Source: Candidatus Staskawiczbacteria bacterium (GTDB taxonomy: Bacteria; Patescibacteriota; Minisyncoccia; Minisyncoccales; Staskawiczbacteraceae). Taken from it: DNA of 64,000 nt. Both the position numbers and the translations under genes were made by a program. Within the stretch, counting starts at the first letter, position 1. The number at the start of each line of letters is the position of its first letter. The notes below the pieces were generated by a model. It searched no databases and was not told the origin of the DNA. It saw nothing but the letters and a program-made list of their open reading frames with translations. The DNA lies in contig CAISIO010000006.1 of assembly GCA_903885445.1 (NCBI GenBank), positions 79,309 through 143,308 on the forward strand. Direction: 5' to 3'. Of the stretch, positions 1-58,309 are shown in pieces.

Positions 1-95
1 TTAGGCTTCAACCACTCCTCCCATATGTAATCTAGATACTCTTGCGTCGGGAACACCGACGCAGGCAGCCAACGACCCTCAACCATCTGAGGCAT
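1..95 (-). CDS. N-terminal fragment of a G+C-rich ORF that continues beyond the left window edge; function unknown
   Basis: ATG at 95 (minus) with AAAGGA 7 nt upstream. The frame stays open to position 1 (MPQMVEGRWLPASVFPTQEYLDYIWEEWLKP...). It is missing from the ORF track only because it is truncated. Composition matches 261..548. Confidence 0.35.
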   Translation of the reverse strand, partial: MPQMVEGRWLPASVFPTQEYLDYIWEEWLKP

Positions 96-156
96 TCAGT
101 TGTCCTTTCAACGAACAAACAAAGGTGCGCCTACTACTTTTCGACACTCCGATGAT

Positions 157-184
157 ATTATACCCCTTAAAAAAACATTGTCAA
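157..184 (-). promoter_or_regulatory. sigma70-like promoter for the truncated ORF at 95..1
   Basis: Minus strand reads TTGACA (184..179), a 16-nt spacer, then TATAAT (162..157). It lies in an AT-rich gap between two G+C-rich ORFs. Confidence 0.4.
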
Positions 185-195
185 TCTAAAATTAT

Positions 196-231
196 AAAAA
201 AAGACGGCCTGGCGTTCGCGGACGCCAGGCC
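196..231 (-). terminator. Rho-independent terminator downstream of ORF 261..548
   Basis: Perfect 10-bp inverted repeat GGCCTGGCGT/ACGCCAGGCC (206..231) with a 6-nt loop. On the minus strand it is followed by GTC and a run of seven T (202..196). Confidence 0.75.
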
Positions 232-260
232 AAAGAATGATTGGAGAGGGGTTGACTAGC

Positions 261-548
261 CTAGCTTCGGGGTCGCTGTCGCAGGTCAGGCCTCCTGCAT
301 AGGGTTTTCTGCCCCTCTTTACCGCGGCCGGAGGACTTCTGCCAGGCGGCCACGATCAAGCCCTGGATGTCTTCCGGCTCGACGGGACGGATGTTAGCCG
401 TGATTGCACTGGCCAGAGAGCGCAACACACTGTCACCCGGCCGTGCTCCTTTTGAAACACGTTCCCGAAGAAACACCGCTTCGGGAGTTTGGGGCAAACG
501 ATGAGTGCGCGGTTGAGACGCGGTTGCCGTAGCTGCCACAGTCGTCAT
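261..548 (-). CDS. G+C-rich 95-aa hypothetical protein with a weak carrier-protein-like GDSV(L) motif
   Basis: ORF-track ORF with AAGGA 6 nt upstream of the ATG at 548 and a terminator 30 nt after the stop. I recognise no family. The PGDSVLRSLASAI segment loosely resembles the GxDS(L/I) phosphopantetheine site of ACP/PCP. Confidence 0.55.
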   Translation of the reverse strand: MTTVAATATASQPRTHRLPQTPEAVFLRERVSKGARPGDSVLRSLASAITANIRPVEPEDIQGLIVAAWQKSSGRGKEGQKTLCRRPDLRQRPRS

Positions 549-627
549 GGATCGTCCTTTGTCCTAGTTCTACTCTGTTTCACTGATCACTAATGATACA
601 AGACGTGAGAACCCCCAAGAAACCCCG

Positions 628-696
628 CTAGATTGGATCACCTCCTTCCATGGAAGATTTCAACGAACTTAACCTCGAACACGATTGTTTCGCCAT
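628..696 (-). CDS. Candidate 22-aa mini-ORF (MAKQSCSRLSSLKSSMEGGDPI) in the leader of ORF 261..548
   Basis: AAGGAG (708..703), a 6-nt spacer, then ATG at 696; stop TAG at 630..628. It lies downstream of the promoter at 732..760. It is too short for the ORF track and there is no homology evidence. Confidence 0.25.
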   Translation of the reverse strand: MAKQSCSRLSSLKSSMEGGDPI

Positions 697-731
697 AGTC
701 GGCTCCTTCATCTAATGGCGCTTTCACAATT

Positions 732-760
732 ACTATAGCCCTTTCGTAAATTAATGTCAA
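732..760 (-). promoter_or_regulatory. sigma70-like promoter driving the mini-ORF and the 95-aa ORF
   Basis: Minus strand reads TTGACA (760..755), a 17-nt spacer, then TATAGT (737..732). Confidence 0.4.
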
Positions 761-799: not shown

Positions 800-1345
800 A
801 TGATTATAATAATTGGTTTGGGAAATCCCGGAGAACAATATAAAAACACTCGGCACAATATCGGGTTCATGGCAGTTGACGAGTTCGCGAAAAAAAATAG
901 TTTTCCCGAGTTTGAGTTGCAAAAAAAATCCAATGCGCTGGTTTCTGCAAGCAACGACATATTGCTGGCAAAGCCTCAGACATTTATGAACGATTCTGGC
1001 AAGGCAGTAAAAGAAATCTGTAAAAACAAAAAATCCGCGGACTTGATTATAATCCACGACGATATAGACCTGCCGTTGGGAAAAATAAAAATAGTAAAAG
1101 ACCGCGGTTCTGCCGGACACAAAGGAGTCGAGTCTATAATCCAAAACATCGGAAACGACGGATTAATAAGATTTAGAATTGGAATTGGTTCGGAAAATAA
1201 AGTTGAAGCAATGAAGGTTGTTTTGAAAAACTTCTCGACAGAAGAACAAAAAATACTAAACGAGGTTTTGAAAAAAATAGTCAGCGCCCTTGATTTATTT
1301 GTAGCCGAAGGATTGGAAAAAACAATGAATGAATATAATAAATAA
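800..1345 (+). CDS. pth: peptidyl-tRNA hydrolase
   Basis: MIIIIGLGNPGEQYKNTRHNIGF and the later IIHDDIDLPLGKIK..GSAGHKG blocks are typical Pth. The ORF-track start at 794 is TTG; the first ATG is at 800. Confidence 0.9.
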   Translation: MIIIIGLGNPGEQYKNTRHNIGFMAVDEFAKKNSFPEFELQKKSNALVSASNDILLAKPQTFMNDSGKAVKEICKNKKSADLIIIHDDIDLPLGKIKIVKDRGSAGHKGVESIIQNIGNDGLIRFRIGIGSENKVEAMKVVLKNFSTEEQKILNEVLKKIVSALDLFVAEGLEKTMNEYNK

Positions 1346-3377
1346 AGAGATAAACCAATTGCTGATAGTTGGCGTCACCCCCTATTTTCTGGATAAGGGG
1401 GTTTTATGGTATGAAGAAAACCTGCAAAAAATACTGACTGCTCGAGAGACGCAGCCGTTTTTTGCAGAGAATGTGATTTTTTTGCAGAAAGACCATAGTT
1501 TCCAGTTCGCGCAGTTTTTAAGAAAGCTTGATGAAATGGGGTACGAAAGGGTTTTCAAGGTTTCTGAACCAGGCGAGTTCTCCCAACGCGGAGGAATAGT
1601 TGATGTGTTCCCGATTAATTTGATGAACGCGATGCGTTTGGATTTTCTGGGAAACGAAGTTGACGCAATAAAAATATTGGAAGACATAAAAATTACTGAC
1701 GAAGAAAAATCAAAAGAAATTCTAAAGAAAAAATTAAAATCCCAAAAAATATTTTCGGAATTAAAAGGATTAAAACCGGGAGATTATTTGGTCCACTTAG
1801 ACCACGGCATAGGAAAATTTGTGGGGATAGAAAATTTTGAGATGCAAAGCACGAAATTCGAAATACAAATTGAAAATCGAGGAACCCTGACAGCGGCCAG
1901 AATAAATCCGGACGAAGAAAATCCTAAAAGCGAAAATGAATATTATGTTCTTGAATATGACAAAGAAGATAAATTGTATGTCCCGCTGGGATTGGAAAGA
2001 AAATTATCAAGGTATGTTGGTTTCCAGGATCCTAAGGTTTCCAGACTGGGCTCGTCCATTTGGCAGAAAACAAAGGGCGTAATAAAAGAAGCTGTTGAAA
2101 AGTTGGCAAAGGAATTATTGCAATTGTATGCGCAAAAAGAAACCGTAGAAAGAGCGCCGTATTCAGGAGATAAAGAGCTTGAATCGCAATTTAAGTCGGG
2201 TTTTGAGTTTCAGGAAACGCCAGACCAGCTCCAGGCGATTGAAGACATTAGAAAAGATTTGCAAAAAGCAAAACCAATGGACAGGATTGTCTGCGGAGAT
2301 GTGGGCTTTGGTAAAACAGAAGTGGCAATGCGCACTGCTTTGCTGGCTTCTATAAATAACAGGCAAACTGTTTTAATCTGCCCTACCACAATTTTGGCGA
2401 ATCAGCATTTCAATTCTTTCAGAAAAAGATTTGAGAACTTACCAGTAAGAATTGCACAGCTTTCGGGGCTTCAAACAAAAACCGAACAGAAAAAAGTTAT
2501 CAATGATTTGAAAGAAGGAAGAATAGATATTGTAATTGGCACACACCGTCTTTTGTCAAAAGATATCGGATTTAAAAACCTACAACTTTTAATTATTGAT
2601 GACGAACAAAAATTCGGCGTAAAACAAAAAGAAAGACTAAGACAATTAAAAACCAGCTTGGACGTTTTAAGCCTGTCGGCAACTCCTATTCCACGGACTA
2701 TTTATCTGGCGCTTTCTTCTTTGAAAAATATAAGTTTAATGCAAACTCCTCCAAATGGAAGGCAGGCAATAAAAACAGAGGTTTTAAAATATAAAACAAA
2801 AGCTGTTAAAAGAATAATCGACGAGGAATTAAAAAGAAAAGGCCAGGTTTTTTATTTGCACAACCGGGTCCAAACAATTGAAGCAAAAGTCAGAGAACTA
2901 AAAGAGCTCTGCCCGAAAGCGAAAATCAGCTCGATTCATGGAAGCATTGCAGAAAAACAATTAATAAGAATAATGGACGAATTTCAAAAAGAGAAGACAA
3001 ATGTTTTGGTTGCCACAACAATTATTGAAAACGGGCTAGATATTCCAAACGTAAACACAATTATAATAGAAGACTCCGCGCGACTAGGGCTTTCGCAGGC
3101 ACACCAGATAAGAGGCCGGGTTGGCAGGTCGGGCACAAAAAGTTTTGCCTATTTTATGTACAATGAAAAATCTTTAACTCCTTTAGTAAAAGATAGGTTA
3201 AAAGCTTTAGAAGACGCGCAGGAATTGGGAGCAGGATATAGAATCGCAATAAGAGACTTGGAATTGCGGGGAGCAGGAAATATTTTAGGCAAAGAGCAAT
3301 CTGGCGCCATAAACAAAATCGGTTTAAATTTGTATTCCCAAATGATCTCTGAAGCCATCGAAAAATTCAAACAATAA
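1329..3377 (+). CDS. mfd: transcription-repair coupling factor, short form (682 aa)
   Basis: CarD/RID-like GDYLVHLDHGIGKF. SF2 translocase motifs GDVGFGKTEVAMR, DEQKFGV and QIRGRVGRS. TRG-like RGAGNILGKEQSG. Confidence 0.85.
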   Translation: MNIINKEINQLLIVGVTPYFLDKGVLWYEENLQKILTARETQPFFAENVIFLQKDHSFQFAQFLRKLDEMGYERVFKVSEPGEFSQRGGIVDVFPINLMNAMRLDFLGNEVDAIKILEDIKITDEEKSKEILKKKLKSQKIFSELKGLKPGDYLVHLDHGIGKFVGIENFEMQSTKFEIQIENRGTLTAARINPDEENPKSENEYYVLEYDKEDKLYVPLGLERKLSRYVGFQDPKVSRLGSSIWQKTKGVIKEAVEKLAKELLQLYAQKETVERAPYSGDKELESQFKSGFEFQETPDQLQAIEDIRKDLQKAKPMDRIVCGDVGFGKTEVAMRTALLASINNRQTVLICPTTILANQHFNSFRKRFENLPVRIAQLSGLQTKTEQKKVINDLKEGRIDIVIGTHRLLSKDIGFKNLQLLIIDDEQKFGVKQKERLRQLKTSLDVLSLSATPIPRTIYLALSSLKNISLMQTPPNGRQAIKTEVLKYKTKAVKRIIDEELKRKGQVFYLHNRVQTIEAKVRELKELCPKAKISSIHGSIAEKQLIRIMDEFQKEKTNVLVATTIIENGLDIPNVNTIIIEDSARLGLSQAHQIRGRVGRSGTKSFAYFMYNEKSLTPLVKDRLKALEDAQELGAGYRIAIRDLELRGAGNILGKEQSGAINKIGLNLYSQMISEAIEKFKQ

Positions 3378-3409
3378 AAAAGAGGGGCGCTGGCTGTTTG
3401 CCAGTCCCC
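3371..3409 (-). terminator. Rho-independent terminator of the FabZ-like gene
   Basis: Imperfect hairpin GGGGcgCTGGC/GCCAGtCCCC (3384..3409) starting at the TAG stop. On the minus strand it is followed by TCTTTTTTAT. Confidence 0.6.
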
Positions 3410-3987
3410 TACGACTCTTGCTCAATCCTGCTCGGATCGAAGGCCACGAGCGATACAGAACCGATAGTTGCCTTTTTCTTTCCGCCCACCTTGGCGACCA
3501 TTCTTCCGCCCTCGATAAGGACGACCCCGCCTAATTCATCGGCGCTCAACTCAGCCCTCATCTCAAGGCAGACGGTTTCACCAGGACGAACAAATCCGCT
3601 GAACTTTGCGGAAGTTACCTCCCTGGCCGCCAACTTCTTGCCCTCCAGCATTTCGCTTATCTCCGGGTCGCGGTAGTGGAACAGAAAAACGCCGAGCAGC
3701 TGGAAGGCCATCTCAATGATATCAACCCCGCGGTGAACTCGCATGCCCTTTACGGGTTCATGCCCTTCGCAGAGCTTGTCCGTAACCTTGAAAGAACCCA
3801 CGACCGCTGTCTTCGTTATTCTGACCTCGTCGAGCAACAGCTTGTCCCCTTCGTGGAAGAGTATCTCCTGGATTTTCTGCTTGTCGACGATGATTTCCTT
3901 GACTTCCTCTTCTTTCGGGGGCTCTTCTTTCGGGGGCTCTTCTTTCGTCTTGTCTCCGCCAAAAGGCCAGAAATTAAACTTCTTCAT
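3409..3987 (-). CDS. G+C-rich FabZ/FabA-like hotdog-fold dehydratase homologue with an N-terminal PKEEP repeat
   Basis: ILFHEGDKLLLDEV and CEGHEPVKGMRVHRGVDIIEMAFQ align with the FabZ blocks LPHRxPFLLVDxV and GHFPxxPvMPGVLxiEaxAQ. The in-frame ATG at 3987 has GGAGAAG upstream, so the longer ORF-track N-terminus is rejected. Confidence 0.7.
   Translation of the reverse strand: MKKFNFWPFGGDKTKEEPPKEEPPKEEEVKEIIVDKQKIQEILFHEGDKLLLDEVRITKTAVVGSFKVTDKLCEGHEPVKGMRVHRGVDIIEMAFQLLGVFLFHYRDPEISEMLEGKKLAAREVTSAKFSGFVRPGETVCLEMRAELSADELGGVVLIEGGRMVAKVGGKKKATIGSVSLVAFDPSRIEQES
3907..3947. repeat. 15-nt tandem repeat, about 2.7 copies, inside the FabZ-like gene
   Basis: CTCTTCTTTCGGGGG occurs at 3907..3921 and 3922..3936, with a partial third copy to 3947. 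On the minus strand it encodes EEPPKEEPPKEEE. Confidence 0.9.
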
Positions 3988-4052
3988 GGGCTTCTCCGTG
4001 TATCTGGTTCGATGGCTGCTTGGTTGTACAAAGGGCTGCTTAACACACGATA

Positions 4053-4080
4053 ATAATACCACGAAATAATAAAAATGCAA
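4053..4080 (-). promoter_or_regulatory. Possible promoter of the FabZ-like gene
   Basis: Minus strand reads TTGCAT (4080..4075), a 16-nt spacer, then TATTAT (4058..4053), preceded by TGg (extended -10-like). Confidence 0.3.
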
Positions 4081-4158
4081 GGTCAATTATGTTCAAATTG
4101 AATTTATGTGCTATATTAAGAAAAACAAACGTATTAATAACTGGCAAATAAATAAAAA

Positions 4159-6195
4159 ATGAAAAGCTTAGTAATAGTTGAAAGTCCGACAAAAGCAAAG
4201 ACAATTCAGAAGTTTTTGGGAAGCGACTTTATTATTAAGTCGTCTTTTGGTCATGTAAGAGATTTACCAAAAAGAGAACTTGGAGTTGATGTTGAAAATG
4301 GATTCAAGCCAAAATATATTATACCGACAAAAGCCAAAAAGGTTGTCGCCGACCTTAAAAAAGAATCAAAAAATGCAGATGTTACCATACTGGCGACCGA
4401 CGAAGACCGCGAAGGAGAGTCCATTGCATGGCATTTGCAGGAAGCCTTAAAGTTAAAAGACCCTCAAAGAATTGTGTTCCACGAAATTACCAAAACCGCA
4501 ATTGAGCAGGCCTTAAAAACGCCGAGACACATTGATATTAATTTAGTGGACGCCCAGCAGGCGAGAAGAATTTTAGACAGGATTGTGGGTTACAAACTTT
4601 CACCGTTTTTGTGGAAAAAAGTCGCCAAAGGCCTTTCAGCCGGTAGGGTGCAATCGGTTGCCTTAAAACTGGTTGTCGAAAAAGAAAGGGAAATTGGGAA
4701 ATTTATCGCCGAGGAATACTGGAGCGTTGAAGCTTTACTTAAAAAATTGGGAAAAGAATTCAGCGCTTCGCTGATTAAAAATGGCGAGAAACCAATTGAG
4801 AAGTTAGAAATAAAAAACAAAACCGAAGCTGATAAAATTCTAAGTGAATTAAATAACGCAGGTTATATTGTTGAATCGGTAGAAAAAAAGGAAACGAAAA
4901 GATTCCCCGCTCCCCCTTTTACAACCAGCACTTTGCAACAGGCGGCCTGGCAAAGATTTAAATTTTCGGCAAAACAGACAATGATGTTGGCGCAAAGGCT
5001 TTATGAAGAAGGAAATATTACTTACCACAGGACCGATTCTTTAAATCTTTCTGAAATGTCTTTAAGCGCGGCAAAAGATTTTATATTGGGAAAATATGGC
5101 AAAGATTATTGGGCGGGGAAACCGGTGCACTACAAAACAAAATCGGCCGGAGCACAGGAGGCCCACGAAGCCATAAGGCCGGCTTACGCGGAAAAAAGCC
5201 CGGACACGCTAAAAGGAATAGACGCCAGGCAATTAAAACTTTACACCTTGATATGGCAGAGATTTATCGCATGCCAAATGACACATGCGACATTTGATTC
5301 CGTATCAGCGGATATTAAAGCAAACGATTATACTTTCCGCGCCAACGGCCAGACATTAAAATTTGAAGGATTTTTAAAAGTTTATCCGACAAAAACTGAA
5401 GAAACCGAGCTCCCGGATTTGGAAAAAAATGATAAGTTGGATCTTTCAAAACTGGACTCTATTCAGCATTTTACAGAACCTCCTGCGCGATACACCGAAG
5501 CCAGTTTGATTAAGGCTTTAGAAAAACACGGAGTTGGCAGGCCATCAACTTACGCTTCTATTTTGTCTGCCATCCAGGACAGGAATTATGTTTTCAAAAA
5601 CGACCAAAAACGCCTTTTCCCAAGCGAAATGGGTATAATAGTCAACGATGTTTTAGTGCAAAATTTTCCCGAAGTAGTTGATATTGATTTTACTGCAAAA
5701 ATGGAAAAGGAACTGGACGAGATTGCAGACGGTAAGGACACGTGGGAAAAAACCTGCAAAGATTTTTATACTCCTTTCGCCAAGAACCTGAAAGAGAAAT
5801 ATGAAGAAGTTATAAAAGCTGATTTGACTAAAAAAACCGACAAAGTATGTCCCAAATGCGGGGCTCCATTAATTGAACGACTCGGAAGATTCGGACGGTT
5901 TTACGCCTGCTCAAAGTTTCCGGAGTGCAAGCACACGGAGTCAGTTGAAGGCGACCCTGACACCCTGAATATTTTCTGTCCAAAATGCAAAGAAGGAAAA
6001 GTAACGGGCAAAAGAACTAAAAAAGGAAAAACGTTTTACGGATGCAATAAATTTCCAAAATGCGATTTCGCTTTATGGGATAAACCTGTAAACGAACTTT
6101 GCCCGAAGTGCGATTCTTTATTAATAGAAAAAGGCAAAAAGATTGTGAAGTGCTCGAATAAAGAATGCGATTACGTCAAAGATGCAAATAAATAA
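4159..6195 (+). CDS. topA: DNA topoisomerase I
   Basis: Toprim N-terminus LVIVESPTKAKTIQKFLG and DEDREGE. Catalytic-Tyr region ITYHRTDS. C-terminal CxxC zinc ribbons CPKCGAPL, CPKCKEG and CPKCDSL. Confidence 0.95.
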   Translation: MKSLVIVESPTKAKTIQKFLGSDFIIKSSFGHVRDLPKRELGVDVENGFKPKYIIPTKAKKVVADLKKESKNADVTILATDEDREGESIAWHLQEALKLKDPQRIVFHEITKTAIEQALKTPRHIDINLVDAQQARRILDRIVGYKLSPFLWKKVAKGLSAGRVQSVALKLVVEKEREIGKFIAEEYWSVEALLKKLGKEFSASLIKNGEKPIEKLEIKNKTEADKILSELNNAGYIVESVEKKETKRFPAPPFTTSTLQQAAWQRFKFSAKQTMMLAQRLYEEGNITYHRTDSLNLSEMSLSAAKDFILGKYGKDYWAGKPVHYKTKSAGAQEAHEAIRPAYAEKSPDTLKGIDARQLKLYTLIWQRFIACQMTHATFDSVSADIKANDYTFRANGQTLKFEGFLKVYPTKTEETELPDLEKNDKLDLSKLDSIQHFTEPPARYTEASLIKALEKHGVGRPSTYASILSAIQDRNYVFKNDQKRLFPSEMGIIVNDVLVQNFPEVVDIDFTAKMEKELDEIADGKDTWEKTCKDFYTPFAKNLKEKYEEVIKADLTKKTDKVCPKCGAPLIERLGRFGRFYACSKFPECKHTESVEGDPDTLNIFCPKCKEGKVTGKRTKKGKTFYGCNKFPKCDFALWDKPVNELCPKCDSLLIEKGKKIVKCSNKECDYVKDANK

Positions 6196-7930
6196 CGGCA
6201 TACAAAGGATCATAAACAAAAGTTCAGATCCCAAGCTTATTGAGGCTGTTTTTGAGTTTGCAAAAGAGGCGTACAAAGAAAGATCAAGGCCTTCCGGAGA
6301 AAATTATATTATGCATGCCGTAAAAGTGGCAACAACGCTTGATAAAATGGACCTCGATCCGACGACAATCGCTTTTGGTATTTTGCACGATATAATATAT
6401 GACGTTCCCGATTCCGCCAGAAAAGTTGAGATTAAAGAAATTGAAAAAAGATTTGGTAAGGAAATGGGCCATTTAGTGGAAAAAATTTCCGGCCTTAGCA
6501 AAATACGTTATTCTCTATCTGTCGGCATAAGAGATAAAAAAACATTCACCAGGGAAAAAATTGAAAACCTAAGAAGAATGTTTCTTGCTTTGTCGGAAGA
6601 CATAAGGGTGGTCTTAGTCGAACTTGTTTCAAGGCTGGATGAATTGGATATTTTGCACTATCTGCCCAAAGACAAGCAAATGTTGTATGCTCTAGAAACT
6701 TTGCAGATTTTCGTTCCGATTGCGAGCCGTCTGGGATTGTCCGAAATCAGAAGAAGCCTTGAAGATACCGCCTTTATGTATTTGTACCCGGAAAAATATA
6801 AATGGCTTAAAGAAAATATCAAAGAGCAGTATGAAGAAAGAGAGAAATATCTCAAAAAATTCATTCCCCATCTCCAAAAAATCTTTAAAAAAGAAAGAGT
6901 AAGAATTTTAGACATAAATTACAGGGTAAAATCTTATTGGAGCACATACCGAAAGCTTGCAAACCATGAAATGAACTTTAATAAAATCCACGACCTGATT
7001 GCGCTCAGGATAATTGCCCCTGATATTGAAAGCTGCTACCGGATTTTGGGCGTAGTGCATAAGCACTTTAAACCAATTTCCGAAGAAATAGATGACTATA
7101 TAGCAAAGCCTAAATCAAACGGCTACAGATCTTTGCACACCACTATTTTTTCGCAAGATGGAAAAATAACTGAAGTGCAGATAAGAACGGAAGAAATGCA
7201 AAGAGAAGCTGAATACGGCGTTTGCGCCCACTGGTCTTACAAAGAAAGAATCAATCTTAAAAAAGAGGGCGCAGATTTTGATTGGCTTAAAAATGTCCCT
7301 GATTTCTGGAAAACCTTTAAAATAGATTTTTTTACAAATAAAGTTTTCCCATTCACGCCAAAAGGAGACGTTATCGTTCTGCCGAAAAACTCAACGCCGG
7401 TTGACTTTGCGTATGCGGTGCATTCAGATATCGGCAACCATTGCGAATCGGCAAAGATCGGCGGAAAAATAGTTCCGCTTGACCATATTTTAGAAAATGG
7501 TGACCTGGTGGAAATCACCATAAATAAAAACAAAAAACCGTCAAAGGATTGGCTTAATTTTGTTAAAACGTCCCTGGCAAAGTCAAACATAAAAAAACTG
7601 ACCGGCGAAGAAGGATCAGCTTTGAGATTCCCCTTATCTATTCCCGGTTTTATAAAAAGAAAAATATCAGAAATTTCCGAGGCTTCAAGAAAAAAAAGAG
7701 AAGAAAAACAAAAAGTAGGAAAAGGGAAAATACGCCAGATATATCTGGCAGGACAAAAAGGAATTTATATACACATAGCCAAATGTTGCAATCCTCAGCC
7801 AGGAGATAAGGTGGGCGCGTATGTCCCCCAAAACAGGGCTCCGGCAATTTTACACCGGCTATCCTGCAATAATTTCAAGAAAATAGCCGAGAAATTCCCG
7901 GAAAAAATAATCGATGCTTCGTGGGAGTAG
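6182..7930 (+). CDS. RelA/SpoT-homologue (p)ppGpp synthetase/hydrolase
   Basis: HD hydrolase region (HAVKVA..GILHD). Synthetase block (YRSLHTTI, EVQIRT). TGS domain (FTPKGDVIVLPKNSTPVDFAYAVHSDIG). Confidence 0.9.
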   Translation: MQINNGIQRIINKSSDPKLIEAVFEFAKEAYKERSRPSGENYIMHAVKVATTLDKMDLDPTTIAFGILHDIIYDVPDSARKVEIKEIEKRFGKEMGHLVEKISGLSKIRYSLSVGIRDKKTFTREKIENLRRMFLALSEDIRVVLVELVSRLDELDILHYLPKDKQMLYALETLQIFVPIASRLGLSEIRRSLEDTAFMYLYPEKYKWLKENIKEQYEEREKYLKKFIPHLQKIFKKERVRILDINYRVKSYWSTYRKLANHEMNFNKIHDLIALRIIAPDIESCYRILGVVHKHFKPISEEIDDYIAKPKSNGYRSLHTTIFSQDGKITEVQIRTEEMQREAEYGVCAHWSYKERINLKKEGADFDWLKNVPDFWKTFKIDFFTNKVFPFTPKGDVIVLPKNSTPVDFAYAVHSDIGNHCESAKIGGKIVPLDHILENGDLVEITINKNKKPSKDWLNFVKTSLAKSNIKKLTGEEGSALRFPLSIPGFIKRKISEISEASRKKREEKQKVGKGKIRQIYLAGQKGIYIHIAKCCNPQPGDKVGAYVPQNRAPAILHRLSCNNFKKIAEKFPEKIIDASWE

Positions 7931-7972: not shown

Positions 7973-8056
7973 GCCGAGGTGGCGGAACTGGCAGACGCAC
8001 GGGACTCAAAATCCCGCGATCGCAAGGTCATGAGGGTTCAATTCCCTCCCTCGGCA
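7973..8056 (+). tRNA. tRNA-Leu (anticodon CAA), type II with a long variable arm
   Basis: Acceptor GCCGAGG/CCTCGGC plus discriminator A. Anticodon stem CGGGA/TCCCG with loop CTCAAAA. T arm GAGGG-TTCAATT-CCCTC. CCA is not encoded. Confidence 0.9.
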
Positions 8057-8798
8057 CATCATATTCATCAAGCGGTTCAGGTATAATAATTTTTACCGTG
8101 CCGCTTTTTATTTTGTCTTTTAATTTGGGCAAATCATTTTTCCTGAAATCGCGATTCATATGCGTTAATGCCAAACATTTAACTTTATTTTCTTCGGCAA
8201 ATTTTATAGCAGAAACAATTGAGGAGTGACCAATTTTTTCCTGGTCATATAAATAAGTTTCCAAAACCAGCAGGTCTAATCCTTTATAAAAATCTGTCCC
8301 GGGTATCGGCGATCCATCTCCGCCATACGCATAAATATTATTCCCATCATCTATTTTTACGGCCAAGTTTTCTCCAGAATGAACCGTCTTTGCAAAAGAT
8401 AATTTTAAGTCTTGAAAATTTATCTGTTTATCGTCTTTTGACTCAACCAGGTTAATTTTATATTCAAATAGTTCCATAAACCCGCTGTAAATGGACTCCA
8501 TAAATCCTGCAAAATGGTCTTTTATGTTATTTTGGCAAATGATAGTAAGGTCTCTTTTCCTTCCGCCTTCCCACATCCTTAAAAGTAAAGCCGGCAATCC
8601 TAAAAAATGGTCGCCATGAATATGGCTTATACAGATTGCGTCCAAAAAATTTGGGTCTGGATTAAACTTCCACATTTGCCAAGGAATGGTAAAACCGCAG
8701 TCCAAAAGCAACTTGGTTTTATCTGTTAGAACCAAACTGGAATTATTGGGATAATTTTCATCAAACGCCTCGCCAACTCCTAAAAATATAACTTTCAT
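8028..8798 (-). CDS. metallo-beta-lactamase-fold hydrolase
   Basis: HIHGDH (HxHxDH) motif. The ATG at 8798 (MKVIFLGVGEAF) forms an ATGA overlap with the PAP2 stop. The 3' end overlaps tRNA-Leu on the opposite strand by 29 nt. Confidence 0.75.
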   Translation of the reverse strand: MKVIFLGVGEAFDENYPNNSSLVLTDKTKLLLDCGFTIPWQMWKFNPDPNFLDAICISHIHGDHFLGLPALLLRMWEGGRKRDLTIICQNNIKDHFAGFMESIYSGFMELFEYKINLVESKDDKQINFQDLKLSFAKTVHSGENLAVKIDDGNNIYAYGGDGSPIPGTDFYKGLDLLVLETYLYDQEKIGHSSIVSAIKFAEENKVKCLALTHMNRDFRKNDLPKLKDKIKSGTVKIIIPEPLDEYDVPREGIEPS

Positions 8799-16536: not shown

Positions 16537-16595
16537 AATATATTGCGTCAGAAATAGATCCGAACAAGTCTCCAACCAGACAAAGGAGCAAAACT

Positions 16596-16961
16596 GTGGC
16601 TGACATCCTGTTGGTAGAGCCCGCTGCGCAGGTCGTAGAATACCTGCTCGGCATGCTCGCTAGGCACAATGTAACTCAGGTGCCCGATGCCGCAATGGCA
16701 AGAAGTATCATGGCGGAAGGAAGGAAATTCGATCTCCTGATTACCGCCGATAACCTTCGCGGCCAGAGCGGCTTGGAACTGATCGGATGGACACGGACCC
16801 ACTGTCCGAGAGCCCTCCGCACTGTTCTCATGAGCCCCTCGGAGCCGCCCAGCCACAAGGCCCACGGCTTCGTCAAGAAGCCGAAGTACAGGGGCTTCGT
16901 GGCAATCGTCGACAGGCTACTAGCCAGTCAGCCGACACCCGCCACAATTCCAGCGGCCTAA
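16596..16961 (+). CDS. G+C-rich stand-alone response-regulator receiver (REC) domain protein, atypical acidic pocket
   Basis: REC layout: ILLVEP (beta1), FDLLITAD (beta3, D52), VLMSPS (beta4, S80), GFVKKP (beta5, K95-P96). No output domain. GTG start with a strong SD. Confidence 0.7.
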   Translation: MADILLVEPAAQVVEYLLGMLARHNVTQVPDAAMARSIMAEGRKFDLLITADNLRGQSGLELIGWTRTHCPRALRTVLMSPSEPPSHKAHGFVKKPKYRGFVAIVDRLLASQPTPATIPAA

Positions 16962-16985
16962 CAAGGCGCCGTTCATCGCACACCA

Positions 16986-17011
16986 GGGCCTCCCGCGAGG
17001 TCTCTTTTTTT
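16986..17011 (+). terminator. Rho-independent terminator of the receiver gene
   Basis: Hairpin GGGCCTC-CCGC-GAGGTCT (with G-U wobbles) followed by C and seven T. The T-tract abuts the tatD stop codon on the opposite strand. Confidence 0.6.
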
Positions 17012-24140: not shown

Positions 24141-24377
24141 CTATTGAGGCGCCACACAGCTCCATTCTCCCACGGAAACCGGGAGCTGATTGTTGGGTTT
24201 TTGTCCGCCATCGTCGGCCGGCTTGTCCTCCTTGCTTTTGCGAGGATAGCTAACGCAAAATCTAAAACCCAACCCGCGGCAAGGGGAATTTTCGTCTCCG
24301 CCTCGATTCGCGCACGTGCGATTGTCGCATGCGACCCCTAAGGCAGCCCTCATCGGGTCTGTTATGACTCCGCTCAT
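24141..24377 (-). CDS. G+C-rich 78-aa protein with five Cys, no recognisable family
   Basis: GAGGAGG lies 6 nt upstream of the ATG at 24377, with a promoter-like element upstream. Cys at residues 17, 22, 33, 41 and 74. No signal peptide or TM segment is visible. Confidence 0.55.
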   Translation of the reverse strand: MSGVITDPMRAALGVACDNRTCANRGGDENSPCRGLGFRFCVSYPRKSKEDKPADDGGQKPNNQLPVSVGEWSCVAPQ

Positions 24378-45576: not shown

Positions 45577-45579
45577 CTG

Positions 45580-45651
45580 TGCCCCCAGCTGGATTCGAAC
45601 CAGCATCGCAGGCTTCGGAAGCCTAAATTCTATCCATTGAAATATGGGGGC
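45580..45651 (-). tRNA. tRNA-Arg (anticodon CCG)
   Basis: The 72-nt cloverleaf was checked by hand. Acceptor GCCCCCA/TGGGGGC. Anticodon stem TAGGC/GCCTG with loop TTCCGAA. T arm GCTGG-TTCGAAT-CCAGC. Discriminator A. Confidence 0.9.
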
Positions 45652-56343: not shown

Positions 56344-56408
56344 ATTTTTTTAGAAAATAAATTTTATATTATTCTTAATTTTACCACCAGCAAAAAAAAC
56401 AGTCAAAT

Positions 56409-56436
56409 AAAAAAAGAAGCCGGTCGTCAGACCAGC
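56409..56436 (-). terminator. Rho-independent terminator of the radical SAM gene
   Basis: Minus strand reads GCTGGTC-TGAC-GACCGGC followed by TTCTTTTTTT. A second perfect hairpin GGCTCAA/TTGAGCC lies at 56440..56457, between the stop and the terminator. Confidence 0.7.
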
Positions 56437-56463
56437 CTGGGCTCAAAAGGTTGAGCCTATGTT

Positions 56464-58185
56464 TCAATTAGAAGGAGTAATAAACCGGCAAGGCGTAAGC
56501 CCGGGGTGAAGCTTAACGGCTGCCTCATTGCCTTCGTAAAAAGTCGGCGGCTCGTAGGTCCAGCCAGATGCCAAGCGCCTTTCTTCACGAAGAATCTTAT
56601 ACCAGACAAACGGCCCGCCGAGCAAAGAGAATATACGGCTCTTGAACCCAAGCACGCGGTGCATTTCGCCCAACAGCACAGACATCTTGGCGTACATTGC
56701 CGGGTTGCGTCGGTAGTACAACCTTGCGCCCGCAACCATGGCAATATATGTTGTTGCCAAATCACGGGCTTCCCATAAATAACGGTCGCGGATACGCTTA
56801 TCGGGATGGTTGCGATAGCGTTCAAGACCGGCCAGCGTAGTCCGCGCAACACGGGCAACGCTTGGCCCATTGACGGCAAAATCGAGACGGAAAGCTTCCA
56901 GAAGCATTTTTGTCTCGTCACCCGGTGGGATGTGCGGATGGCGGTAGTTTAGAATGAACTGCCCGTGAACGTCAGCCGGATTAACCTCAGAATCAGCCTT
57001 CATCAACCCGCGGGCGGTGAGTTCGGCGTGGAGCGGGGTACCGGCAGCGGGAGTGTAAAGCATAAACTGGTGGAAATCTGTGTCGTATCTCGACGCATAT
57101 TTTATCGCGGCACCGATATTCTGGGGCGTATGTTCGTCCAAAGCAATGATTGTCGAGCCCAACACGCGAATACCGTGTGACTGAAGGTCCTTCACCAACG
57201 CAAACGCGTCAATGCCCTCCAGTTTTTGGTACTGGCTGTTTTCGCCTTCCAGTCCCATCCACACCCACGAGATTCCAAGCCGGACAAGCTCGTCCATTGT
57301 GTACGAACGAATCACGTTCGCAGAGCTGAACACGTACAGGCTCCACGACTTGTTGTGAGCCTCCATCAGTTCCAGCAGACGCATGGCTCGCTTGCGGTGG
57401 AGCAGGAAATTCTCGTCCATAACAAAGAACGATCGAATTTTCATGGTCTGCTCAAGCTGACACATGACATCGAATAGTTCTTCTCCACTCTCGTAGAACT
57501 GGACGCATTTCCCCTTTCCGCCGAACATGGCCGAAGTAGAACAGAAATTGCATCCCAATGGACATCCAACTGACGGGAGTAATGTTGCCGCCACTTCGCC
57601 CTTTAGCTTGATTCCAACGCATCGCCCGCCCATGCCTGACTTGATCAGCGGATGGCGAATCGGGGTGTTCTCGTCTTCGCCAAGATATCTGCGGAACCAA
57701 CGCACTCCTTCACCCTGGACGACAATATCTGCGTCGATTTTCTCGCCCAAGTCGAGTACATTGGCTATGTGCCCGCCAACGACTATCACCGCTTTTGGCT
57801 GATAATACCGAATCCACTCGCACATCTTGCGGACCTTGCGGATATTGGGCCAGATAGAGGAAATACCAATGATATCATACTGTCTGCTTTGTAGCTCCTG
57901 TATAAAGCGCCTTCGCGTCGGAAAATCCAGTAAAGTGCACGGCGCGGTAATATTAGCCTGGATAAGCATCAAGCCCCAGCTTCGATGGAACATCCGCAAA
58001 GAGAAGGGTCCCTGCTCGCGAGTAACCTGGTTCTGATAGAGTTCCATCGGGTTGATGGCTCGACTTCCATACTCGTCGTCTCGGGCGTACGGCCCGAAGA
58101 CACTGGTCAAAAGGACTTTCGCCCCTGTCCCGAGCGGATGCGGTTGCACCTCTGTTTCTTCTGCGCTGATTTTTATGGCTGACAT
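56464..58185 (-). CDS. G+C-rich class-B (B12-binding domain) radical SAM enzyme
   Basis: N-terminal Rossmann-like B12-binding region (YDIIGISSIW, AVIVVGGHIAN) followed by the CxxxCxxC cluster CPLGCNFC. GAGGAG lies 6 nt upstream of the ATG at 58185. Confidence 0.85.
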   Translation of the reverse strand: MSAIKISAEETEVQPHPLGTGAKVLLTSVFGPYARDDEYGSRAINPMELYQNQVTREQGPFSLRMFHRSWGLMLIQANITAPCTLLDFPTRRRFIQELQSRQYDIIGISSIWPNIRKVRKMCEWIRYYQPKAVIVVGGHIANVLDLGEKIDADIVVQGEGVRWFRRYLGEDENTPIRHPLIKSGMGGRCVGIKLKGEVAATLLPSVGCPLGCNFCSTSAMFGGKGKCVQFYESGEELFDVMCQLEQTMKIRSFFVMDENFLLHRKRAMRLLELMEAHNKSWSLYVFSSANVIRSYTMDELVRLGISWVWMGLEGENSQYQKLEGIDAFALVKDLQSHGIRVLGSTIIALDEHTPQNIGAAIKYASRYDTDFHQFMLYTPAAGTPLHAELTARGLMKADSEVNPADVHGQFILNYRHPHIPPGDETKMLLEAFRLDFAVNGPSVARVARTTLAGLERYRNHPDKRIRDRYLWEARDLATTYIAMVAGARLYYRRNPAMYAKMSVLLGEMHRVLGFKSRIFSLLGGPFVWYKILREERRLASGWTYEPPTFYEGNEAAVKLHPGLTPCRFITPSN

Positions 58186-58280
58186 TGCAAACTCCTCATA
58201 GAAAACAGTTGTCTTCCGTATTTTGCGGGTTTATGCCCGCATTTTGTTAAGGTTCGGAAATCGGTCAAAACTGCTCCTTA

Positions 58281-58309
58281 AATATACCACTTGGGATATC
58301 CTATTGCAA
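58281..58309 (-). promoter_or_regulatory. Possible promoter of the radical SAM gene
   Basis: Minus strand reads TTGCAA (58309..58304), a 17-nt spacer, then TATATT (58286..58281). Confidence 0.35.

Follow-up and report, generated by a model that had tools for sequence, protein, structure and literature searches.

A FabZ-derived hotdog gene between topA and mfd in a Candidatus Staskawiczbacteria genome: an ancestral slot and an apparent allele replacement

Introduction

The dehydratase FabZ of type II fatty-acid synthesis (FAS II) carries a positive patch of conserved Lys and Arg residues, onto which the acidic acyl carrier protein (ACP) docks (PMC10139942). Meanwhile, members of the candidate phyla radiation (CPR), the Parcubacteria included, have been reported to be without fatty-acid and lipid synthesis (PMC7242380, PMC5220378), and how CPR bacteria, or Patescibacteria, obtain and tailor their membrane lipids without it is an open question. 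Gene transfer involving Patescibacteria is reported to take place mostly among Patescibacteria themselves (PMC12455944), and a search of the literature on FabZ in Patescibacteria or CPR returned nothing specific. The present work concerns a FabZ-like gene, coding for a protein with a hotdog fold, in a stretch of 64,000 nucleotides of a Candidatus Staskawiczbacteria bacterium (assembly GCA_903885445.1, contig CAISIO010000006.1, positions 79,309 to 143,308), which is called the window below and in which all positions are counted from its first letter (Table 1).

The explanation that we favour, and hold with moderate confidence as a whole, is that this gene belongs to a FabZ-derived family residing in an ancestral slot between topA and mfd, that its product would act as a dehydratase in lipid salvage, and that in this particular genome the resident allele has been replaced in place. 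A lineage-specific orphan derivative of FabZ could give a handle on the lipid handling of the CPR, and the family offers a clonable candidate for lipid remodelling.

Fold, Catalytic Residues and Family

The hotdog protein is a divergent relative of FabZ and not a canonical FabZ. It reaches 20 bits against the FabA-like family of Pfam (PF07977), below the gathering score of 23, and 24.3 and 24.6 bits against the FabZ equivalogs of NCBIfam, TIGR01750 and NF000582, compared to cut-offs of 155 and 113, respectively; a canonical FabZ was rejected on these scores. Four other members of its family gave 24-52 bits with the same equivalogs, all of them far below the cut-offs. As the FabA-like family is matched at E < 0.01 by 13 of 17 members (best 2.3e-9), kinship with the superfamily is not in doubt.

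When a profile of the family was compared with all PDB sequences, every one of the 21 matches was a FabZ, the best being that of E. coli (E = 8e-14), and the resulting alignment pairs His76 (in CEGHEP) and Glu92 (in DIIEMAFQ) of the window protein with His54 and Glu68 of the E. coli enzyme. Both residues are invariant in 17 family members, and the more distant members P0194 and P0191 have an Asp instead of the catalytic Glu. The AlphaFold2 (AF2) model obtained from the family alignment is confident and has a hotdog fold, an antiparallel sheet wrapping a central helix, with a predicted local distance difference test score (pLDDT) of 81 and a predicted template modelling score (pTM) of 0.75. When it was compared with the PDB by Foldseek, the best 50 matches listed were all FabZ, with template modelling (TM) scores, normalised to the target, of 0.70-0.78 and identities of 19-29%; no thioesterase or MaoC structure is found among these 50. 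In addition, the thioesterase families (4HBT and acyl-ACP thioesterase) are matched by none of the 17 members and MaoC by one (E = 0.0015). An earlier sequence-only reading of this DNA had described a FabZ-like hotdog protein keeping the His/Glu dyad and had proposed a comparison of profiles and structures that could expose a non-dehydratase hotdog instead; with all of the best 50 fold matches and all 21 sequence matches being FabZ, and with the dyad aligned, that description holds.

The gene belongs to a small FabZ-derived family present only in Patescibacteria (Paceibacteria / Staskawiczbacteria-type genomes), which is defined in the present analysis as the topA-adjacent FabZ-like family. 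Protein sets of 5.8 billion and 1.84 billion sequences were searched. The family comprises about 60 clusters scoring 92-248 bits against the family profile, compared to at most 66 bits for ordinary FabZ, and 35 representatives were found at E <= 1e-30 among the 1.84 billion proteins. Every member with a named source comes from Patescibacteria, such as Candidatus Staskawiczbacteria. The proteins are 165-200 amino acids (aa) long and share the motifs [FP]-H-R-G-x-x-L-L-D, C-x-G-H, R-G-V-[DE] and E-M-A-[AF]-Q. With 227 bits against the family profile, the window protein has all of the invariant columns, Cys73, Arg86 and Gly87 among them, and carries HEGDK in place of the family consensus HRGRM.

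Several features set the family apart from canonical FabZ. The first is an N-terminal extension of 15-40 residues, with a median net charge of +3 and rich in hydrophobic and aromatic residues, which canonical FabZ does not have. The second is a Cys located three residues ahead of the catalytic His (C-x-G-H), in place of the Phe of FabZ; all sequences of the 17-member alignment have this Cys, as does most of the wider family. Likewise, an Arg is invariant at the position of the Pro in the 'PGV' of FabZ. In the AF2 model, the sheet is further extended by additional strands at its C-terminal end. Meanwhile, the tunnel Gly is kept seven residues after the Glu, and both this residue and the oxyanion Gly are conserved family-wide, down to 28% identity. 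Regarding the ACP-docking patch of the E. coli enzyme, alignment of the loop-region sequences places a conserved Lys at R100, Ser or Asn at K102 and Gly at R103, while R121 and R122 lie in an insert that only FabZ has and R126 corresponds to a Glu in the family.

A role in defence, as could be imagined for a gene that evolves fast while its slot is conserved, was considered and dropped, the PADLOC models having no match to the hotdog protein or to the proteins of the other G+C-rich islets of the window described below.

Pathway Context and Proposed Function

The window offers no pathway in which a FabZ would be expected. Pfam domains of ketosynthase, short-chain dehydrogenase/reductase (SDR), enoyl reductase, acyltransferase, ACP and ACP synthase were absent from those open reading frames (ORFs) of the window that could not be identified by eye; the other large genes, among them those of aminoacyl-tRNA synthetases, UvrB and PolX, were recognised by eye, and several of them were confirmed through an annotated syntenic locus. 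A tblastn search with ACP queries of E. coli and B. subtilis found nothing in the window and the related loci, 337 kb in total. Both searches bear out the previous statement that no other gene of fatty-acid synthesis is present in these 64 kb.

Since the FabZ fold is kept along with the His/Glu dyad and both Gly residues, that of the oxyanion and that of the tunnel, the hotdog protein is most likely still a 3-hydroxyacyl-thioester dehydratase or hydratase, as judged from its sequence and modelled fold. It would catalyze the dehydration of (3R)-3-hydroxyacyl thioesters, or the hydration of 2-enoyl thioesters, by syn-elimination or addition of water at a dimer interface. Because the clade is reported to be without de novo synthesis and the neighbourhood is free of FAS II and ACP genes, the substrates would be scavenged acyl chains, within lipid salvage or remodelling, and not the intermediates of an elongation cycle. 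The carrier may be coenzyme A (CoA) or a non-canonical partner instead of an acidic ACP, because several of the ACP-docking residues appear, in the alignment, to be missing or charge-reversed and a basic N-terminal extension is found instead.

This proposal can be carried further, which we do only tentatively and with rather low confidence: the family would then be a dedicated, ACP-independent enzyme of lipid salvage in Paceibacteria, its basic N-terminus serving to tether or target it and its Cys and Arg adapted to a new substrate or carrier, and the slot would be a recombination cassette. If true, the family would supply one missing step in the rebuilding of CPR membranes from host lipids, and Patescibacteria would swap alleles with one another at this slot, which the highly conserved topA and mfd bracket.

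Three observations pull the other way as far as function is concerned. The altered basic patch is suggestive only of a carrier other than ACP, the residues having been mapped through a loop alignment. The amphipathicity of the N-terminal extension is barely above that of shuffled controls (mean z = 0.7), and an amphipathic-helix membrane anchor is not claimed on this ground. Moreover, some Nealsonbacteria, which are Parcubacteria, have a partial FAS II that lacks the ACP machinery (PMC7242380).

Among the alternatives, it is unlikely that the family has left dehydratase chemistry to become a Cys-dependent enzyme of the acyl-transfer or thioesterase type, or a non-catalytic binder of lipids or of a protein partner. 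The invariant Cys and Arg, standing where FabZ has Phe and Pro, would suit such a change, as would the empty pathway context, whereas the conservation of the His, the Glu or Asp, the oxyanion Gly and the tunnel Gly down to 28% identity is what FabZ-type catalysis would lead one to expect, and thioesterase-family matches are nil among the members.

About equally unlikely, if not slightly more so, is a common housekeeping FabZ, which would serve a type II system with its remaining genes elsewhere in the genome. The best profile and fold matches are indeed FabZ, the dyad is kept, partial FAS II does occur in some Parcubacteria, as just noted, and the view is limited to 64 kb of the genome; but the score is 24 bits against cut-offs of 113-155, other family members reach 45-52, and in the scores against the family profile a clear gap lies between the family and real FabZ. 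The family-specific Cys and Arg, the N-terminal extension and the changed residues of the basic patch speak against it as well, as do the want of any ACP or FAS gene in the window and of any ACP in the 337 kb of loci, and the general report of Parcubacteria without fatty-acid synthesis (PMC5220378). A retained dehydratase or hydratase of lipid salvage is the function that we prefer.

An Ancestral Slot between topA and mfd

A homologue occupies the same slot, in the same orientation, at all 16 distinct related loci, which were drawn from assemblies of different samples, with 28-55% protein identity to the window copy. The hotdog gene is divergent from topA (dprA-topA in some lineages) and convergent with mfd-pth, and pth alone flanks it where mfd lies elsewhere. 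A tree of the hotdog proteins and one built for topA at these loci agree in their deep clades. Given this shared arrangement and this agreement of the trees, the gene is an ancestral, vertically inherited resident of the slot in the Paceibacteria-type clade, and the slot has been occupied since before these Patescibacteria lineages diverged. It had been proposed from the sequence that the gene was inserted between mfd and topA; the 16 loci contradict this. Of that earlier interpretation, the FabZ likeness, the tandem repeat, the terminator, the foreign composition and the missing pathway context stand, and the insertion gives way to an allele swap within an ancestral slot.

The neighbours of the slot show some variation of their own. 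In loci L005 (9038-9919) and L008 (8927-9868), and also in L006, a dprA gene separates topA from the hotdog gene; it is not at this position in the window (3988-4158) or in L001. Besides, Mfd is short across the clade, with about 655-680 aa in the window and in its homologues of L001-L017, and its Pfam matches are only UvrB_inter, CarD_TRCF_RID, DEAD and Helicase_C. The mfd gene overlaps pth by 17 nucleotides (nt).

Foreign Composition and Probable Replacement in Place

The G+C content (GC) of the hotdog gene is 0.53 and that of its third codon positions (GC3) is 0.67, compared to a GC3 of 0.38 in its neighbours and 0.36-0.40 in the flanking pth, mfd, topA, relA and SHMT genes. The excess of GC3 over the housekeeping flanks is therefore +0.29, and in 15 relatives the same quantity ranges from -0.04 to +0.09. 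The whole islet formed by terminator, coding sequence and 5' leader has a G+C content of 0.50-0.55 in a genome of 0.39. Codon usage points the same way, with a cosine of 0.69 to the host, where similarly sized host genes give at least 0.81. These values confirm that the gene is compositionally foreign, as had been noticed before.

The DNA homology to relatives breaks at the edges of the gene. By blastn, the flanks are 74-78% identical to loci L008, L002, L001 and L004 up to positions 3371-3382 and again from 4146-4168, and between these breaks, at the mfd stop and just before the topA start, just a 45-nt motif aligns. Furthermore, the window copy stands apart from those of L001 and L008 in the hotdog tree, whereas topA groups with them, although the support is weak. 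Because the composition deviates and the homology breaks at the gene edges, a replacement appears to have taken place, in which the resident allele, together with its leader and terminator, would have been swapped in place for the allele of another family member, one richer in G+C. The donor may have been an unsampled, G+C-richer Patescibacterium, which fits the reported exchange mainly within Patescibacteria (PMC12455944). Among the loci compared, the likeliest reading of the compositions and alignments is that only the allele of the window was replaced. If so, the window would present a clean case of in-place xenologous replacement of a core gene in a streamlined genome.

At the 5' side of the islet, exactly at the boundary between G+C-rich and A+T-rich DNA, lies a 13-nt near-tandem, CACGATAATAATAC, in 1.9 copies (4046-4071), which could be a junction scar or due to chance.

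The replacement has to be set against some contrary evidence. No closer G+C-rich donor was found in the 5.8 billion proteins, where the best match has 50% identity (53-55% when re-aligned to the loci). The closest relatives share 57-62% identity with each other in the hotdog protein, yet their flanking proteins are 73-85% identical to those of the window, and the family evolves fast everywhere. With weak support for the subgroup, a long branch could mimic a replacement; such an artefact is considered less likely, though still conceivable, since the database searches gave no donor above 55% identity.

It is improbable that a native allele became G+C-rich and divergent in place, for example by biased gene conversion or by selection on codons or messenger RNA. 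Such an enrichment would agree with the small positive GC3 excess of several relatives (up to +0.09) and with the fast evolution of the family in all lineages, but the shift of +0.29 is confined to 670 bp that include the non-coding leader and the terminator, while genes only bases away remain at 0.36-0.40, and three other islets of the window have the same composition, one of them plainly foreign. An assembly chimera, in which a piece of another population's genome would have been joined into the contig, agrees with the metagenome assembly and the sharp compositional edges of the segment and is nonetheless very improbable, as the gene is complete, of the right family and correctly placed and oriented, its terminator directly adjoins the stop codon of mfd and synteny continues on both sides, four such islets lie within one 151-kb contig, relatives from other assemblies bear G+C-rich islets too, and a join needs common k-mers at both edges, of which none was found between the islets.

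Linker Repeat and Expression Signals

Returning to the allele that was apparently brought in by replacement, its N-terminus contains a perfect tandem repeat, in agreement with the previous description of a 15-nt unit present about 2.7 times; Tandem Repeats Finder recovers it at 3907-3947. On the coding strand the unit reads AAA GAA GAG CCC CCG, so that the repeat encodes KEEPP KEEPP KEE, and within the 64-kb window the unit is unique to this place. The segment bearing the repeat is an insertion of 18 aa that lies after the basic and aromatic N-terminal motif (MKKFNFWPF...) and ahead of the strand with which the hotdog core opens, and the AF2 confidence is low in this linker. The KEEPP insertion is absent from all other family members aligned. 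At that point the relative P0194 carries a Pro/Glu-rich insertion of another kind, which argues that the linker tolerates changes of length. The perfect identity of the units suggests that the repeat is recent: the incoming copy would have gained this in-frame duplication of 15 nt at a later time, lengthening an acidic, Pro-rich linker, and further changes in copy number would stay in frame.

As read from the sequence, the start codon of the gene is the ATG at 3987, which GGAG precedes by six nt, and homologues start at equivalent MK... residues. A longer ORF of 225 aa, starting with TTG and reaching 4086, was rejected because the homologues begin at these same residues and because of the position of the ribosome-binding site. 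The ORFs of the + strand within the gene (3398-3676, 3676-4053 and 3743-4069) were dismissed as antisense by-products of a G+C-rich gene. Further upstream, the sigma-70-like promoter match sits in the A+T-rich spacer, ahead of the G+C-rich 5' leader.

At the other end, the hairpin of the putative terminator begins inside the UAG stop (3411-3409), and UCUUUUUU comes after it. RNA folding gave -17.3 kcal/mol (centroid -16.4), with z = -2.4 relative to shuffled sequences, and the 10-bp stem is interrupted; the hairpin is rich in G+C and a U-tract comes immediately after it. A simple terminator scanner missed the hairpin owing to its internal bulge, and it was RNA folding that showed it. The terminator fills the entire 31-nt gap between the stop of the hotdog gene and the convergent stop codon of mfd (3375-3377). 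A private terminator starting at the stop codon had been claimed from the sequence, and the folding of 3410-3383 supports that claim.

Other G+C-Rich Islets and Features of the Window

Three further G+C-rich single-gene islets occur in the 64 kb, each with a terminator-like hairpin (1-740, ~16540-17010 and ~56400-58290). The protein of the last one, which is the largest of the three, is 66-79% identical to proteins of Planctomycetota (Phycisphaerae, Pirellulales and Thermoguttaceae), and its best NCBIfam matches are weak and of the hopanoid or lipid type of radical SAM enzymes (HpnJ, HpnR and the ladderane radical SAM enzyme). This likeness indicates, at the level of protein sequence, a cross-phylum transfer into this Patescibacterium; since the protein of the islet resembles those of Planctomycetota, foreign DNA does enter this genome. 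This apparently Planctomycetota-derived islet lies 52 kb from the hotdog islet in the same window, and the two together bear on the extent and the partners of gene exchange in such symbionts.

Regarding the remaining two, the ORF at 16596-16961 has no Pfam match, with a hairpin and a T-run coming after it, and the segment at 1-740 has a terminator-like hairpin at ~198-232 and no family match. Different G+C-rich genes are found in relatives at the place equivalent to 1-740 (L008, 13266-14170). Further islets of relatives are those of L005 (~1600-2600 and ~11400), L006 (12618-13502), L008 (13266-14170 and 17315-18604) and L014 (~5800-6800), all of them G+C-rich single genes in A+T-rich backgrounds, such as a purD-like gene of 429 aa in L008. 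Small foreign islets thus seem to be a general trait of the clade. A comparison of the four islets of the window for shared junctions or repeats, as a mobile element or an attC-like site would leave, gave only chance 10-12-mers.

An RNA scan of the window recovered one tmRNA and two tRNA genes and no rRNA, which means that rRNA genes do not account for any of the G+C-rich islets. A Cys/Gly-rich ORF of 78 aa (24141-24377, - strand) is mildly enriched in G+C (0.44); it has no family match and is not an ACP.

Table 1. Positions of the hotdog gene, its signals and neighbours, and of other features in the window.
Feature	Position	Strand	Basis or remarks
G+C-rich segment (0.49-0.57) upstream of pth	1-740	.	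95-aa ORF at 261-548 (-); 31-aa ORF ending at base 1
mfd, short (682 aa), convergent neighbour and conserved flank of the slot	1329-3377	+	tblastn and Pfam annotation of syntenic loci
Intrinsic-terminator-like hairpin (3410-3383) and U-tract (3381-3376)	3376-3410	-	RNA fold and sequence read
G+C-rich islet, ~670 bp (terminator, coding sequence, 5' leader)	3378-4045	.	Composition profile, blastn
FabZ-like hotdog coding sequence, 192 aa	3409-3987	-	ORF list, AF2 model, Foldseek, profile against PDB, invariant columns
Perfect 15-nt tandem repeat, 2.7 copies	3907-3947	-	Tandem Repeats Finder, 100% matches, score 82
Shine-Dalgarno-like GGAGAA, six nt upstream of ATG 3987	3992-3997	-	Sequence read
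Sigma-70-like promoter match (TGAACA, 18 nt, TATTAT)	4066-4095	-	Promoter scan, 9/12 positions; consensus match only
topA, divergent neighbour and conserved flank of the slot	4159-6195	+	tblastn and Pfam annotation of syntenic loci
tRNA-Leu(CAA)	7973-8057	+	
121-aa ORF, GC3 0.70, N-terminus resembling a response-regulator receiver	16596-16961	+	Islet ~16540-17010, between leuS and tatD
tmRNA, 115 bits	36469-36822	+	RNA scan of the window
tRNA-Arg(CCG)	45579-45651	-	
B12-binding radical SAM protein, 573 aa, GC 0.53, GC3 0.61, own terminator	56464-58185	-	Islet ~56400-58290

Comparison with Known Systems

The closest described system is FabZ itself, as represented by the enzymes of E. coli (6N3P), C. 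jejuni (3D6X) and P. falciparum (1Z6B). The family shares with them the hotdog fold, an LPHR-like motif in the N-terminal strand, a PGD motif, the catalytic His in a G-H-x-P loop, and the Glu of the central helix seven residues before the tunnel Gly. On the other hand, the window protein is only 20-28% identical to them and falls far under the equivalog cut-offs; the family has the basic N-terminal extension of 15-40 aa, Cys for Phe, Arg for the Pro of 'PGV' and a model with a longer C-terminal sheet, the counterparts of E. coli K102, R103, R121, R122 and R126 appear absent or acidic in the alignment, and the gene has no FAS II neighbours.

The amxFabZ of the anammox ladderane cluster (PMC10139942) is likewise a lineage-specific variant in which the dyad is kept; it has lost conserved Lys and Arg residues of the ACP patch, as the loop alignment suggests for the present family. 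Unlike the present family, it belongs to a lipid cluster with its own ACP and its tunnel is blocked by an Ile in place of the Gly, whereas in the family the tunnel Gly is retained and neither ACP nor lipid genes lie alongside. Regarding the dehydratases of the ApeI/ApeP type (PF22818 and PF22817), a few family members match them weakly, but these matches are inconsistent (1/17 at E < 0.01) and no aryl-polyene cluster is near.

With respect to gene exchange, the locus resembles the single-gene islets of horizontal transfer described in Patescibacteria (PMC12455944), being a compositionally deviant lone gene with its own signals, and the donors reported for those islets are mostly Patescibacteria. 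It differs from them in that the hotdog allele would replace a homologue in an ancestral slot instead of adding a new function.

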